UHGV virus genome: UHGV-0038384
DNA: 11,815 nt
Reading direction: 5' to 3' (one strand)
Source of the DNA: a virus
The position numbers and the translations under genes were made by a program. Of this stretch, positions 941-10,354 are shown one piece after another. Position 1 is the stretch's first letter. Each line of letters begins with the position of its first letter. A model generated the notes under the pieces. It was given only the letters and a program-made list of their open reading frames with translations, was not told where the DNA came from and did not search any database.

Positions 941-1145
941 GGGATTCACGAGAGTAGTTTAATTTAGCGTGTAACCGCATGATTTTAATAAATATTATTG
1001 ATTCAACTTTTAAACCGTATAACCAAACGTATAACTAAAATAATTTGCTGAAAAAATGCACAATTTAAACGGCGATTGCCCTAGCGACTTCCATGATTCT
1101 ACCTGGATTTTTTTCGCTCATTCGTTTTTAAGCTGGTGGATGTTC

Positions 1146-1310: not shown

Positions 1311-1697
1311 ACTACGAAACGGTAATTTTTTCTCTGCGTGAGAGGGGGCGCGGTGTCCAGCTTATTCGTTGTTCGTGGCTAACCACTCCCCCCCCCATGC
1401 CGGATTTTTTTTCCGGTTAACTGTTAATCAGGCTGGTGGGTTTTACCTGTTCTGTAGGAGTGGTCATTATGACCATCCCTTATATCGTCCGAATGCCGGA
1501 CGAAGGCACACATCAACCGTAACGAAAATCGTTATGGTTGCCTTGATGGTCTGCGTGGTCATTATGACCATTCAGCCAATGACCTTAATCAGAATTTTTC
1601 GCTAAAAAATGACGTTGACCACGTCATCCGGAAAGCACAAAATCACGTCGATTTTTAATGGATGGTTAAACCGTCTTTATCTCGATGTCCGTACGTA

Positions 1698-1979
1698 TTA
1701 CGTACGCAGTCGTTCCGGCTTCTTCCAGTGGTACGTTATTTTCTCCTTCTCCCGATACATCTCCACGCGGCGACGGTAGGCCAGCAACTCAAGAACTCTG
1801 GTTCGTATGTTGCGCATATCCACGCCATTAAGTTCTATACCATCACGGCGCATCACCTCAGCAACAACACGCACATAATTTTCAGCGGTCACGCTGTCCG
1901 GCTGTGTGGCCTGTTCGTCATGCTGCTGGCTGATTCCGGTAACGCGGCGGATTAATCCCAGTAGTTCGGCTTCTGTCAT
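1698..1979 (-). CDS. Hypothetical 93-aa protein; first gene on the minus strand downstream of the cosB-like segment
   Basis: ATG at 1979 preceded by a G-run Shine-Dalgarno (GGGGG, about 5 nt upstream); charged, helical-looking translation; no family recognised. Confidence 0.45.
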   Translation of the reverse strand: MTEAELLGLIRRVTGISQQHDEQATQPDSVTAENYVRVVAEVMRRDGIELNGVDMRNIRTRVLELLAYRRRVEMYREKEKITYHWKKPERLRT

Positions 1980-2013
1980 TGTGCCCCCATCGCTCTGATA
2001 GTCTGGTGTCGTC

Positions 2014-2059
2014 GGGTCCTTCCTGGAATTATGGCCCGTTACGGGGCGGCGACCTCGCG
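2014..2059 (+). other. Lambda-type cos site copy A (cosQ-like plus cosN), plus orientation, without adjacent R-site repeats
   Basis: GGGTCCTTCCTGGAATTATGGCCCGTTACGGGGCGGCGACCTCGCG; contains the lambda cohesive-end 12-mer GGGCGGCGACCT at 2044-2055, followed by GGTTTTTCGCTATTTATGAGATTTT, which resembles the lambda left-end sequence as I recall it. Confidence 0.6.
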
Positions 2060-2410
2060 GTTTTTCGCTATTTATGAGATTTTTTGAGGGGGTGGTTGTT
2101 GTTTAATTGTTTGGTATATCTAATTGATAAGTAAGGTAAAAATAAAATAAATACAACAACCTTACGATGTATTTTGATGTCATTAATGTGAAAAAATTCA
2201 ATGATATCAAATGGTTTTGTAAAAACACATGGTTGTTGTATCGCGTATTTGATGGCGTAACAGAAAGTGATTTTTAACTTTACCGCTCTGTAACTACGGA
2301 TTATTCCATGCTGGCACGGAGAACGGCTACGGCATGACGCCACCCAGCCTATACAGAACAGTAAAGCCGATAAATTGTTAATCACGCGCAGCAATGCGTG
2401 TGATTTTTGC

Positions 2411-2563
2411 ACACTTCCGGTTAACGGGTACGATGTCCGGTTTTAGTGTCTGTTTTTTGCGCATGTCCGGTTCATAGAAAGCATGTTTTTATATTTTTCA
2501 TATGGTTAACTTGCAGAGAAACCGGACATGGATCCCGGAAAATTTTCATAAATAGTGAAAACG
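2411..2563 (-). promoter_or_regulatory. cosB-like segment with three ATGTCCGGTT repeats (candidate small-terminase binding sites) and AT-rich spacers
   Basis: ATGTCCGGTT at 2433-2442 and 2463-2472; its reverse complement at 2520-2529. Minus strand 2563 to 2535 reads CGTTTTCACTATTTATGAAAATTTTCCGG. The arrangement relative to cos copy B resembles lambda R3-I1-R2-R1. Confidence 0.45.
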
Positions 2564-2609
2564 CGCGAGGTCGCCGCCCCGTAACGGGTCCATATGCCGG
2601 AAAGGACCC
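2564..2609 (-). other. Lambda-type cos site copy B (cosQ-like plus cosN), minus orientation, contiguous with the cosB-like segment
   Basis: Reverse complement reads GGGTCCTTTCCGGCATATGGACCCGTTACGGGGCGGCGACCTCGCG. The 25 bp at 2564-2588 are an exact inverted copy of 2035-2059. The cohesive-end 12-mer complement is at 2568-2579. Confidence 0.65.
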
Positions 2610-2611
2610 GT

Positions 2612-2635
2612 AAAAAAAAGCCGGATTTCTCCGGC
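2612..2635 (-). terminator. Rho-independent terminator ending the capsid operon
   Basis: On the minus strand: stem GCCGGA, loop GAAA, stem TCCGGC, then T8; lies just after the stop of the 137-aa gene. Confidence 0.6.
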
Positions 2636-2641
2636 CTTGTC

Positions 2642-3055
2642 TCAGATGGTTTTCAGTATGTGATCGATGTCGCCGTCATCGCCCTGGTTTCTGCCATCGT
2701 ATGCCATGCCAGCTGATACGGCTTGCGGGCTGTGCATGTCCATAAAGTTTTCAAAGGCTGCGGTAAGCTCTGGTGCAACCTTTGGGCGCTCCTGCTCTAT
2801 GGTCATGTTCAGGATTTCACGAGCATTATCGACGCTAATACATGGCACGTTTGCCATTGCACGTAACAGCGGCTGATAGTCGTTATGTTCATGAAGCGCC
2901 ATAATCGCATCAGCGCGCGGCTTGTCCTGTTCTTCCAGTTTGTTGAGTTGATATACGGCCTCGTAGGTTGATAACCCTCTGTCAGCCATTGCCCGCGCTT
3001 CGGCTTTAAATTTACTCGCCAGCGGTAGCGCCATGATGCTTTCATTCGTTGCCAT
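2642..3055 (-). CDS. Hypothetical 137-aa acidic protein, last gene of the capsid operon next to cos
   Basis: ATG at 3055 with an AGGGGGA Shine-Dalgarno 5-6 nt upstream; starts 12 nt after the D-like stop; no family recognised. Confidence 0.5.
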   Translation of the reverse strand: MATNESIMALPLASKFKAEARAMADRGLSTYEAVYQLNKLEEQDKPRADAIMALHEHNDYQPLLRAMANVPCISVDNAREILNMTIEQERPKVAPELTAAFENFMDMHSPQAVSAGMAYDGRNQGDDGDIDHILKTI

Positions 3056-3067
3056 CGTTCCCCCTGC

Positions 3068-3403
3068 TTATCGGGCCAGCGGCTGAACGGATACGCCAGA
3101 ACCCGCAAAGGCGGCGCATTTTTTCGCATCGGTGTCGACGCTCTCAGGCCAGTTAACGGCGGCGATATTGAATATCCCCGTCTTATAGCACTGTGCTGAT
3201 TTCTGCGTCGACGTGTCAACGGGGTACGAGGTCAGATAAACAGCCTTGCCAGATTCCTGACCATCCCACGGCTTAAACTCGCCATTGTCCGCCAGCATCA
3301 GCGGGGTAAATTCCTGAATAACGCCAGCATCAGCGGCAAAATGTACCAGCGTCGTTGATACCTGCTGACTGCCTGCAAATAACTCAATGTATGGAGTGTT
3401 CAT
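3068..3403 (-). CDS. Head decoration protein, lambda gpD family
   Basis: Motifs TPLMLADNG...WDG, YKTGIFNIAAVNWPES and KKCAAFAGSGVSV align with my recollection of lambda gpD (TPLMLD...WDG, YKSGTFRYEDVLWPEA, KKRTAFAGTAISIV). ATG at 3403 has a GGTGGA Shine-Dalgarno; an alternative GTG start lies at 3412. Confidence 0.75.
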   Translation of the reverse strand: MNTPYIELFAGSQQVSTTLVHFAADAGVIQEFTPLMLADNGEFKPWDGQESGKAVYLTSYPVDTSTQKSAQCYKTGIFNIAAVNWPESVDTDAKKCAAFAGSGVSVQPLAR

Positions 3404-3414
3404 AGAATCCACCG

Positions 3415-4470
3415 TTAACCAATTTTGACGGTAACAAATTTGCGAATATCTGCCGGAACAGGCTGCGGTGCGCTGTGTGTCTGCACGTACTCAATCGCCG
3501 GATCGCCGTCTTCAATCCAGTTTTTCGGGTAAAACATGTTTTGCGTTGCGCCCGTTCTTACCGCTTCCTGTTCCATAATCGCACCATAGGCCACCAGCCC
3601 TTTATTGTTGGTGTTGCCCAGGACCAGCAAATCAGGCTCAAGGAAATATTTTTCTGTGCCGTCGCTGTCAGTGTATTTGCCGGAATAGACGATAAGGGCC
3701 AGATCACCAAGATAGCCTTTAAAGCTCACCACTTCTCCCAGGTTTTTACATGCCAGCTCTGCGGCGGATTCTGAACCACGGGAGAGATCGTACAGTTCAC
3801 GGAATTTTTTAAAGCTGCGTAACATGCGCCATACATCAACGCCCATAATCATGACGTTTGCGGGGCAACCTGCCTGATCTGCGTATAGCTCAATGTCATA
3901 GATTGGGTCGTGTATGTCTTTGTCCTGCTCTGACCATTTTTTACCGTCGGCCTGCTCTATGATGTTTTTTTCCGGTATCTTCCAGTCGATTTCATAGCGC
4001 TCTATGCCTTCGCCCTCAATGATGTTTTTTCCGGTCGTTACCGCATTTACCGCCAGCCATTCCACGCGCGCTTTAATGGCGTTTATCTGGCGGCGCATGT
4101 TGCCAGTAATCAGGCGCATACGGCGGTAGGTAGGGTCGTTAAGCTGTGCTGGATCTTCTCCAGCCATGCGCATTATTGTTTTTAATGGATCGATTTCGTG
4201 TTTTGGCTTCATGTAGCCAGGGCGAATAATGCTTGTTTCGTACCCTTTATCGCGCTGAACCTGGCTACCCACCATAGGCGAACAAAACGCCGACATAGTG
4301 ACTTCTTCAATATCCAGGTTATCTAACATGATGTCCTGTGTGTTGAATGTCGCCACGTTCGGGAAAAACAGCGCGGTAAACAGCGGACTGAATTTAAATT
4401 CCGCAATATCCTCGCGATTCAGGTACGCAAAAAGCTGGTTAGTGTTAAGTGATATTGCTTTTACTGTCAT
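3415..4470 (-). CDS. Major capsid protein, lambda gpE family
   Basis: 351 aa. FKFSPLFTALFF, PGYMKPKHEIDP, WSEQDKDIHDPIYDIELYA and YPKNWIEDGDPA match lambda gpE as I recall it (FKFDPLFLRLFF, PGYVKPKHEVNP, WSKRDKSTYDPTDDIEAYA, YPKNWVTTGDPA). Start overlaps the upstream stop as TAATG. Confidence 0.85.
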   Translation of the reverse strand: MTVKAISLNTNQLFAYLNREDIAEFKFSPLFTALFFPNVATFNTQDIMLDNLDIEEVTMSAFCSPMVGSQVQRDKGYETSIIRPGYMKPKHEIDPLKTIMRMAGEDPAQLNDPTYRRMRLITGNMRRQINAIKARVEWLAVNAVTTGKNIIEGEGIERYEIDWKIPEKNIIEQADGKKWSEQDKDIHDPIYDIELYADQAGCPANVMIMGVDVWRMLRSFKKFRELYDLSRGSESAAELACKNLGEVVSFKGYLGDLALIVYSGKYTDSDGTEKYFLEPDLLVLGNTNNKGLVAYGAIMEQEAVRTGATQNMFYPKNWIEDGDPAIEYVQTHSAPQPVPADIRKFVTVKIG

Positions 4471-8612: not shown

Positions 8613-8898
8613 GTGAAAGGCTCCTACAGTAATTTTAAGGAGTCTCGCTACTACGCTGTCAAACATGGTGGCGAGACGTAACAGGGTTGACAGACTGGCA
8701 CTGTAGAGACCAGCGAGCGCAAAGGCTCCCCCGTTACGCCCCGCCATAATGCGGGTATGGGTAGGTTTACGGACACAAAAAAACCGCATATCGGAATGTA
8801 AGCGGCTGTCCGCTACAGTATTCAGGCTGTCAAACCCGGTCGCCATGTGGGCGACGGGGGAAGCATACAGCCCCGTGATAATTTTTTGCAAGCGGTTT

Positions 8899-9087
8899 TT
8901 ACGCATGATGTGACCCCTGACGAATACGAGCGGCAAATACAGCAACACAACCTGACGGGCAACGGCTACGCGCTTCGCGTTCTGTCCAGGCGGTTACGTG
9001 GATGATTTGAGATTCTGACGCGCCAAAGATGATAAAGCGCCAGATAAATGCGGTTTGAGAATGTACAAGGGTAGGGATAGTAGCCAT
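8899..9087 (-). CDS. Small repeated protein, unit 2 (62 aa), possibly Icd-like
   Basis: GAGGAGG Shine-Dalgarno 8 nt before ATG at 9087. Translation MATIPTLVHSQTAFIWRF...VTAWTEREARSRCP...FAARIRQGSHHA. Confidence 0.4.
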   Translation of the reverse strand: MATIPTLVHSQTAFIWRFIIFGASESQIIHVTAWTEREARSRCPSGCVAVFAARIRQGSHHA

Positions 9088-9456
9088 GTTGGCAGCCTCC
9101 TCAGTGTGGTTAAGATAACCGCCACGCAAAAGGCTAATTTCGCTGGTGGCGGACTGTACAGGGTTAGCCTTACCGGACACTGAAGAAACCGGCGCGGATT
9201 GCTCCGCCCCCGTACAGCCCACCATTGATAAGGTGTGACTATGCGGCACAAAAAAACACGCGGGGCGCGTGCTGTGCGCTTCAGTTGTTTTCAGGAGGCT
9301 AATCCCGACACCCGTTTTATGAGGTGCGCGGGAATCATAGCCATTTTTGCTGGTGGCGATCAAGCGGTTTTTTTCTCCGGCACTCAGTGCCAGAAAACGC
9401 CACACAAAGGCCGTTTGTGTGTGTACAAGGTGTGGTATATGATTTACGGCAACCAT
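9088..9456 (-). CDS. Small repeated protein, unit 1: N-terminal homologue with a degenerate tail, fused in frame to unit 2 with no stop of its own
   Basis: AGGAG Shine-Dalgarno plus ATG at 9456; MVAVNHIPHLVHTQTAFVWRFLALSAGE parallels the unit 2 N-terminus; the frame stays open to the unit 2 stop at 8899. Confidence 0.25.
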
Positions 9457-10147: not shown

Positions 10148-10354
10148 TTAAGCAGCCGTTCCGCGTGCTTCCTCTTCGCGTTCTTTCTGCCAGGACAACA
10201 CATCATCCTCATACCATCCGCGACGGCGTAAACCAACGCGAAAACCCTGCGGAAATTCTCCGGCGTTGATCATGCTTTGCAGCGTGCTGTCTGCCTTGAT
10301 GTGGATAATTTTTTTTACTTCCTGGCGAAAGATAATTTTTCTGATTGCTTCCAT
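10148..10354 (-). CDS. alpA: AlpA-family transcriptional regulator (prophage CP4-57 regulatory protein type)
   Basis: 68 aa; IIFRQEVKKIIHIKADSTLQSMINAGEFPQGFRVGLRRRGWYEDDVLSWQ matches the AlpA helix-turn-helix pattern; lies on the integrase side of the operon. Confidence 0.8.
   Translation of the reverse strand: MEAIRKIIFRQEVKKIIHIKADSTLQSMINAGEFPQGFRVGLRRRGWYEDDVLSWQKEREEEARGTAA

Follow-up and report, generated by a model that had tools for sequence, protein, structure and literature searches.

The virus genome UHGV-0038384, analysed here as a stretch of 11,815 nucleotides (the window), carries at 2014-2609 two lambda-type cos sites that face each other, and it raises the question of what two such packaging sites could do for one element. 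By its synteny with the EcCICFT073 family and its Pfam content, the window is an E. coli phage satellite, a cos-type phage-inducible chromosomal island (PICI) of that family, as a first-pass annotation made from the letters alone had guessed. EcCICFT073 has two functional cos sites, cos1 and cos2, and RppA, encoded right after cos1, pairs with the helper terminase small subunit (TerS) and redirects it to the cosB of cos1 (Fillol-Salom et al. 2018 ISME J, PMC6092414; Fillol-Salom et al. 2019 Mol Cell, PMC6739421). We consider it likely that 2013-2610 is a packaging module with two complete facing cos sites, one carrying a Q-type and the other a P-type cosB, which would provide two helper specificities without Rpp. 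The double cos would thus probably let the island use two kinds of helper without Rpp hijacking.

The two sites lie in the arms of an inverted repeat and share a lambda-type core (strand in brackets):

2013-2084 (+): left arm of the inverted repeat, with cosQ, spacer, cosN and an I2-like stretch, from a repeat search
2539-2610 (-): right arm of the inverted repeat, from the same kind of search
2035-2059 (no strand): exact 25-bp core CCCGTTACGGGGCGGCGACCTCGCG common to both arms, read from the sequence
2014-2020 (+): left cosQ GGGTCCT, 30 nt upstream of cosN base 1
2603-2609 (-): right cosQ GGGTCCT, 30 nt upstream of cosN
2044-2055 (+): left cosN GGGCGGCGACCT, 12/12 against lambda NC_001416
2568-2579 (-): right cosN GGGCGGCGACCT, 12/12 against lambda NC_001416

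The arms are 72 nt long, 83% complementary and separated by 454 nt. Within them, 2564-2588 is the exact reverse complement of 2035-2059, and both carry the lambda 12-mer, as the first-pass annotation had stated; by our estimate, chance alone would give about 1e-7 such perfect 25-nt inverted repeats in 11.8 kb. The cosQ-like flanks that it had noted at both copies also stand, with GGGTCCT at -30, an offset common to both copies, lambda NC_001416 and the P-type and Q-type phages. For the register comparison, the ends of the lambda genome itself (NC_001416) were used. In this alignment both copies match as lambda-type over cosQ, cosN and I2, with ungapped identities of 27/35 (left) and 31/35 (right) over bp 13-47, the I2 region. 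Starting at bp 48, the copies are no more similar to lambda than random sequence would be (46/153 and 37/153 for left and right), and the lambda CGTTTCC cores stand at bp 53, 114 (inverted) and 155 from cosN base 1. The phage 21 type was represented by CFT073 prophage 4, which has been described as encoding TerS-21 (PMC9026076), and the cos of phi80, N15 and HK97 were left out of the comparison. Terminase cutting at both predicted cosN would generate 12-nt cohesive ends.

Beyond the I2 region, each copy has its own set of repeats. The features of the left, Q-type cos are as follows:

2038-2244 (+): Q-type segment (cosN, I2, cosB), 92-98% identity over 207 bp to lambdoid prophage cos (our loci L006/L007)
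2094-2102 (+): R3-like site GGTTGTTGT, bp 51-59 from cosN base 1
2153-2161 (-): R2-like site, inverted relative to R3, bp 110-118
2231-2239 (+): R1-like site, bp 188-196
2117-2129 (-): possible IHF (I1-like) site TATCAATTAGATA between R3 and R2, a weak assignment from the consensus only

Those of the right, P-type cos are:

2433-2616 (-): P-type segment (cosQ, cosN, I2, cosB), 94% identity to the cos of phage PhiR12_1
2520-2529 (-): R3-like site ATGTCCGGTT, bp 51-60 from cosN base 1
2463-2472 (+): R2-like site, inverted relative to R3, bp 108-117
2433-2442 (+): R1-like site in the R2 orientation, bp 138-147

The first-pass annotation had recognised a cosB at the right copy only. Its description of the right copy is correct: the window as a whole contains three copies of ATGTCCGGTT, all at 2433-2529, where shuffled sequences lead one to expect 0.02 and none of 200 shuffles reaches three. 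The claim of exclusivity is wrong, because GGTTGTTGT likewise occurs three times beside the left cosN (0.14 expected; 0/200 shuffles reach three), and the left R3-like site at bp 51-59 is in register with the first lambda R core at bp 53. Judged by these repeats, their register and the identity to phage and prophage cos, the left copy is a complete cos with its own phage-type cosB, and the right copy carries a genuine non-lambda cosB; the GGTTGTTGT and ATGTCCGGTT sites are the predicted TerS-binding R elements. Both cos sites resemble that of lambda in the position of cosQ at -30, the identical cosN 12-mer, the conserved I2 and the triple R repeat, whose R3 lies near bp 50-60 and whose R2 is inverted. 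They differ from it in that the R motifs are unrelated to the CGTTTCC core, no terS follows cosB, two sites face each other and the evidence for IHF is weak.

The phages that share these cosBs suggest which terminases would read them. The 94% match of the P-type segment holds for five PhiR12 phages, and homology stops 49 bp before the PhiR12 Nu1 start, Nu1 being followed by A, W and B. The homology of the Q-type segment stops 28 bp before the start of a phage terS in a terS-terL-W-portal arrangement, and the Q-type prophage in TUM2330 lies in a Qin-like neighbourhood. The two cos sites appear to be copies taken from separate lambdoid phage lineages. The TerS proteins of both types belong to the Nu1 family in Pfam, and in their alignment the C-terminal ~100 amino acids are near-identical and the N-terminal DNA-binding regions are unrelated. 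This supports the earlier suggestion that the non-lambda R motifs of the right copy reflect another TerS specificity. Among 5426 complete E. coli genomes, 246 have the Q-type and 1154 the P-type junction of cosB with the terS 5' end, so candidate helpers are common for either type. A division of this kind is familiar from lambda and phage 21, in which, according to work attributed to the Feiss laboratory, cosB and the Nu1 N-terminus reportedly co-vary and cosN is shared (see also PMC9026076). As in that pair, the nicking site and the TerL-binding part are shared and specificity appears to lie in the TerS N-terminal winged helix and the matching R sites; the present case differs in adding two specificity classes and in placing both cognate cosBs on one satellite.

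The gene order of CFT073 in this region is major capsid protein (MCP, c1499), Dec (c1500), hyp137, cosN (+), rppA, cosN (-) and hyp93. The window shares with EcCICFT073 the order int, primase, PerC, MCP, Dec, hyp137, cos, cos, hyp93, the two convergent lambda-type cos with identical PICI-specific flanks on the cosQ side and, at EcCICFT073 cos2, a P-type cosB like that of its own right cos. Two cos sites between hyp137 and hyp93, one of the marks of the family, are present. The first-pass annotation had stressed that the two cosN face each other, unlike lambda. The contrast with lambda is real; however, since the CFT073 sites also converge around rppA, the facing pair is a family trait and not peculiar to this locus. 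Unlike the window, in which rpp is missing, EcCICFT073 carries rppA between its cos sites, and the cosB of its cos1 is PICI-specific (ACCACCACC at bp 55-63) and is read via Rpp-TerS. The P-type cosB of the window stands at the hyp137 side, inverted relative to CFT073.

The published work describes what the EcCICFT073 pair does. Lambda and phi80 transfer a plasmid that carries either of its cos sites, and a phage cosB could be identified at neither site by comparison with lambda, phi80 and phage 4 (PMC6092414, PMC6739421). For the island itself, deletion of cos1 lowers transfer, deletion of cos2 raises it with lambda and phi80, and double deletion abolishes it (PMC6092414). A single PICI R3 was proposed at bp 48-65 of cos1 (Murialdo & Feiss 2022, PMC9026076). 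There is no mention of the orientation or inversion of the cos pair in PMC6092414 or PMC6739421. Cos-type Staphylococcus aureus pathogenicity islands (SaPIs) such as SaPIbov5 resemble the present island in carrying a copy of the helper cos instead of their own terminase small subunit and differ in host and terminase family; SaPIbov4 has been reported to have two putative cos sites (cited in PMC6092414).

We read the cos sites outward-in across eleven islands and obtained the following cassettes, with the hyp137-side cos given before the hyp93-side cos and islands other than CFT073 and NCTC86 named by our locus numbers:

CFT073: PICI cosB and rppA; P-type
NCTC86: PICI cosB and rpp; Q-type (its cos2)
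L011: P-type and a 69-amino-acid open reading frame (ORF); Q-type
L003, L004: GGTGGTGGT motif and a 180-amino-acid Nu1-family TerS; lambda/21-like triad
Window, L001, L012-L015: P-type and no gene; Q-type
L008, L009: Q-type; P-type

All the cassettes examined have a phage-type R triad at the hyp93-side cos, which is the published cos2 in CFT073. We found no report of a phage-type cos2 or of the inversion described below in the literature searched, the coverage of which was incomplete. In every cassette, homology to phage DNA starts at cosN, and the spacers on the cosQ side are PICI-specific, GGCATATGGAC at the hyp137 side and GGAATTATGGC at the hyp93 side, compared with GGTGATCCGACAGG in phages. 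In L011 (NZ_CP027437.1, 1835-2044), the 69-amino-acid ORF consists of the first nine P-type terS codons and the C-terminal part of rpp. It looks like an intermediate in which the PICI cosB and the 5' end of rpp had given way to a phage cosB and the beginning of terS. The sister islands L003 (3721-4263) and L004 (5820-6362) at tRNA-Pro/yejO have a full-length 180-amino-acid Nu1-family TerS in place of Rpp. The N-terminus of this TerS, its DNA-binding domain, resembles that of the Q-type TerS; its gene is preceded by one GGTGGTGGT motif, related to GGTTGTTGT, at the R3 position and is faced by a lambda/21-like cosB.

What became of rpp in the window can be read from the centre of the cassette:

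2301-2348 (-): remnant of an rpp 3' end, AGWRHAVAVLRASME and stop, by translation and by-eye comparison with RppA, which ends in AGWRHAVSVRRASMEQ
2347-2364 (+): second rpp 3' remnant, AYTEQ and stop (ADTEQ and stop in RppA), by translation against the sequence downstream of CFT073 rppA
2383-2410 (+): terminator-like hairpin with a T run, homologous to the sequence after CFT073 rppA

The by-eye comparison of 2301-2348 covered RppA of CFT073 and Rpp of NCTC86. The two remnants are joined tail to tail at 2301-2364. Beyond each R1, the window DNA is non-phage and matches the sequence after cos2 in NCTC86-type and CFT073-type islands. These features, together with the fused rpp 3' ends, indicate that the rpp-less state is derived, and in its composition the rpp-less cassette is in effect two cos2-type modules joined. 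No annotated ORF lies between the cos sites, and downstream of the cos1 position only the two 3' remnants of rpp are found. The PICI-specific cosB (bp 55-63, ACCACCACC in CFT073 cos1) is in neither window copy, both of which are phage-type. A 114-amino-acid ORF at 2068-2412 (-), which runs across a cosB and the rpp remnant and has no annotation in RefSeq, was considered as a gene and rejected. Within 2014-2609, no Rfam family reached its gathering threshold. For hyp93 and hyp137, phmmer gave no PDB match at E<=1, the RppC structure (PMC6739421) being unconfirmed among the entries searched, and there was no Pfam match; neither protein therefore appears to be a disguised Rpp.

The full rpp-less cassette (at least 80% of the query) was found in 11 of the 5426 genomes, in nine of them oriented as in the window (97-100% identity) and in two inverted. 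The fetched copies occupy three attachment sites, yejO, clpS and thiM, across which the cassette diverges by at most 3.7% and the capsid genes of the islands differ by up to ~8%, suggesting that the rearrangement came first and the cassette spread later. All the copies compared have intact R motifs, cosN and cosQ. In STEC2018-607 (yejO) and JNEC-KY203 (clpS), which are L008 and L009, the cassette is reversed between the same flanking genes, and the 512 bp between the cosN 12-mers, once inverted, match the window in all but 2 nt. Where the spacers differ, at 2022-2034 and 2589-2601, the differences remain with the flanks and 2060-2563 travels with the segment, which places the exchange in these two islands inside the exact 25-bp core at 2035-2059. 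The same holds for the rpp-bearing cassette. We built the junction expected of an inverted CFT073 segment as a query (hyp93 flank, cosN, cos1 cosB and rppA 5' end) and found it in 15 genomes at >=80% coverage, 12 of them at 100% identity among the matches listed, compared with 69 genomes for the native CFT073-type junction. In WP4-S17-ESBL-08 (L018), the 751 bp from cosN to cosN equal the inverted CFT073 segment with 0 differences, and rppA is directed against the capsid operon. Both orientations thus exist in nature for two cassette types, as seen between genomes.

The arms themselves also vary. The hyp137-side arms of L003 and L018 have the hyp93-type spacer (CCTGGAATTATGGCC), which they hence carry on both arms. 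In L015 (NZ_CP080260.1, ~2585-2596 and ~3109-3120), both cosN read GGGCGTCGACCT, with G to T at position 6, and the same variant in both copies points to concerted evolution of the inverted cos cores. The varying crossover points and homogenized arms argue for exchange between these arms by homologous recombination or gene conversion, and the inner 512 bp are most likely invertible by this route within the arms. No dedicated invertase was found in 1600-3100, and the sole recombinase is the island integrase ~8 kb away. Cutting and religation by terminase was considered as the main inversion route and set aside: the crossover of L008 and L009 in the cosN core fits it, and the varying exchange points favour homologous exchange. 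As a minor and less likely possibility, some exchanges or inversions may arise when terminase cuts both cos, releasing an inner fragment whose identical 12-nt overhangs re-anneal and rejoin either way. Both arms supply an equivalent cosQ and cosN, so inversion would leave both cos sites of the rpp-less cassette unchanged.

A working model can be outlined from this architecture. Each cos would combine PICI-specific outer DNA (cosQ and spacer), a universal cosN and an inner cosB of lambdoid lineage. A helper TerS with the matching N-terminal DNA-binding domain would bind the R sites directly and position TerL at the adjacent cosN for nicking, and the island concatemer would then be packaged in the cosN-to-cosB direction, away from the nicked cos. 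In lambda, an inverted cos is reported to be ignored by the translocating terminase. Here, likewise, the enzyme would pass the oppositely oriented cos and end at a later cos of the same orientation, at which it would meet cosQ ahead of cosN. Two cos sites of differing cosB and opposite orientation would therefore offer two alternative helper specificities and opposite packaging directions. Four island units, ~44.6 kb (4 x 11.15 kb), would be within lambda-like head capacity; EcCICFT073 DNA is packaged at phage size (PMC6092414). Without Rpp there would be no retargeting of non-cognate TerS and no block of the helper by that route.

Several points weigh against this model. The increase in lambda and phi80 transfer on deletion of EcCICFT073 cos2 implies that a second cos can carry a cost with non-cognate helpers. 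The P-type R1 is oriented as R2, unlike lambda R1; a consensus scan for IHF in the right cosB gave no match at <=1 mismatch, and TATCAATTAGATA in the left is a weak match with one mismatch to the consensus WATCAANNNNTTR. The cassette is rare, and when seven cassettes were compared for purifying selection on the R sites, the variable positions were too few to show it, with the centre as invariant as these sites. Signs of decay are present in the rpp remnants and in an 'ash' pseudogene, and an island in such a state could be immobile. Cutting, helper identity and transfer are, for the window island, all predictions from sequence.

That decay leads to an alternative in which the island is a dead relic: rpp was lost by illegitimate rearrangement, packaging is poor and the cos pair persists by inertia. 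The tail-to-tail remnants at 2301-2364, the pseudogenes of the island and the occurrence in 11 of 5426 genomes agree with it. Nevertheless we consider it unlikely, since a cassette at three attachment sites with capsid genes up to ~8% apart indicates spread after the rearrangement, R motifs, cosN and cosQ are intact in all copies, and cognate prophages for both cosB types are abundant. A quite unlikely reading of the inversions is that the arms form a dedicated invertible element, a programmed switch of packaging direction, helper preference or, in relatives, rpp expression. Like the Hin, Gin, Cin and FimB/E systems, the locus has a short segment between inverted repeats with both orientations found, in proportions of 9 to 2 and 69 to 15 and in isomer pairs that differ by 2 nt and 0 nt, and in L018 rppA does point against the capsid operon. 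It differs from those systems in lacking a dedicated invertase in or next to the cassette, in that the repeats are the cos sites and in its varying crossover points. The homogenized arm spacers are those of ordinary homologous exchange, the isomers are seen between genomes only, and inversion alters neither cos of the rpp-less cassette.

The remaining alternatives concern the function of the cos sites. The first-pass annotation had supposed that the left copy could serve for termination only, act as a decoy for the helper terminase or be the scar of a recombination event, in which case only the right cos would work. In the INPHARED phage collection no record matches the left cosB beyond the I2 region, and lambda and phi80 can transfer EcCICFT073 without its cos2 (PMC6092414); both findings would suit this view. 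We nonetheless find it very unlikely and do not retain any of the three roles, given that the left copy has a complete cosB whose R3/R2/R1-like sites are all present and keep the lambda register, shows 92-98% identity across 207 bp with the cos preceding an intact terS-terL-W-portal (an arrangement in 246 genomes) and has its Q-type cosB retained as cos2 in NCTC86-type islands. Least probable among these accounts is an interference device in which the cos sites mainly titrate helper terminase, replacing the interference by Rpp and leaving transfer secondary. With cosBs 92-98% and 94% identical to those of phages, the sites should compete for helper TerS, and PICIs of the EcCICFT073 family do interfere with helper packaging (PMC6739421), but competition and packaging are the same event, inseparable by sequence, and a complete in-register cosQ serves termination in transducing particles and is unneeded for titration. 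We therefore retain the packaging module with two helper specificities as the preferred reading.

The island is integrated between tRNA-Pro and yejO of E. coli, and the window is 99.3% identical to strain S1-CAM-02-A. Its genes are all on the - strand, i.e., right to left in window coordinates, in the order tyrosine integrase, small helix-turn-helix protein, ash and icd-like genes, DUF4222, D5-type primase, SSB, PerC, MCP, decoration protein, hyp137, cos region and hyp93. Pfam matches in the island are Phage_integrase, D5_N/DUF5906 primase, Phage_cap_E and HDPD. The features next to the cos region are:

3415-4470 (-): major capsid protein, lambda gpE-type (Pfam Phage_cap_E)
3068-3412 (-): decoration protein Dec, gpD-type (Pfam HDPD)
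2642-3055 (-): hyp137 (phrog_1999), flanking gene, in the same position as CFT073 C_RS07020
2617-2638 (-): intrinsic-terminator-like hairpin that ends the capsid operon (MCP, Dec, hyp137) just before the right cosQ
1698-1979 (-): hyp93 (phrog_1561, unknown function), the last island gene ahead of the chromosome junction

Over residues 45-119, hyp137 is similar to the C-terminal part of the head maturation protease family phrog_53 (E=7e-10), a region that we take to be where the lambda Nu3 scaffold lies. By this match hyp137 is possibly Nu3-like, and the island may encode a trio of capsid, decoration and scaffold-like proteins. In EcCICFT073, deletion of the capsid and decoration genes left transfer and interference unchanged (PMC6092414). 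The 68-amino-acid ORF at 10148-10354, a candidate for the AlpA activator, is a helix-turn-helix regulator in RefSeq and has no Pfam match at E<=0.001. The 11.8-kb window aligns to 13.6 kb of its closest genome (L001) in three pieces, and its yejO remnant (1 to ~1000) is ~1.8 kb shorter than the yejO pseudogene of that genome (6001-8800). A 16-nt direct repeat, AAACGTATAACTAAAA, occurs in L001 at 8823-8838 (window 1026-1041) and 19962-19977, one copy between int and tRNA-Pro and the other beyond hyp93; these are candidate att ends, and their spacing suggests an island size of ~11.15 kb. In the region 8664-9327 (-), Rfam identified two C4 antisense RNAs (9142-9229 and 8664-8751), a c4-a1b1 target (8819-8868) and isrK (9251-9327). 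This region adjoins the icd-like and ash genes and forms a P1/P7/P4-style C4-icd immunity region within a PICI-type island.

Paired cos sites are of a known kind, that of EcCICFT073 cos1/cos2; what appears to be new here is an rpp-less pair with two phage-type cosBs of different specificity around a naturally invertible segment. More tentatively, the cos pair of the family may be a modular, invertible specificity cassette, in which cosN and the arms would form the joint for swapping cosB among islands and helpers and cos2 would be an Rpp-independent entry for a second TerS class. The window would then be an extreme case, with Rpp dropped and two cosBs borrowed. The inversion isomers mean that comparative maps cannot presume a fixed orientation of rpp and cos, and they provide a natural system on the question of whether cos sites promote DNA rearrangement. 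Matched cosB-TerS pairs could direct cosmid or PICI-based delivery vectors to chosen helper phages. The published work left the role of the second cos open, as cos2 works on a plasmid and its deletion raises lambda-mediated transfer. Intact cosBs of other lambdoid TerS classes at cos2 would offer an explanation, namely a second, Rpp-independent helper range, for which the natural rpp-less islands are potential test cases.

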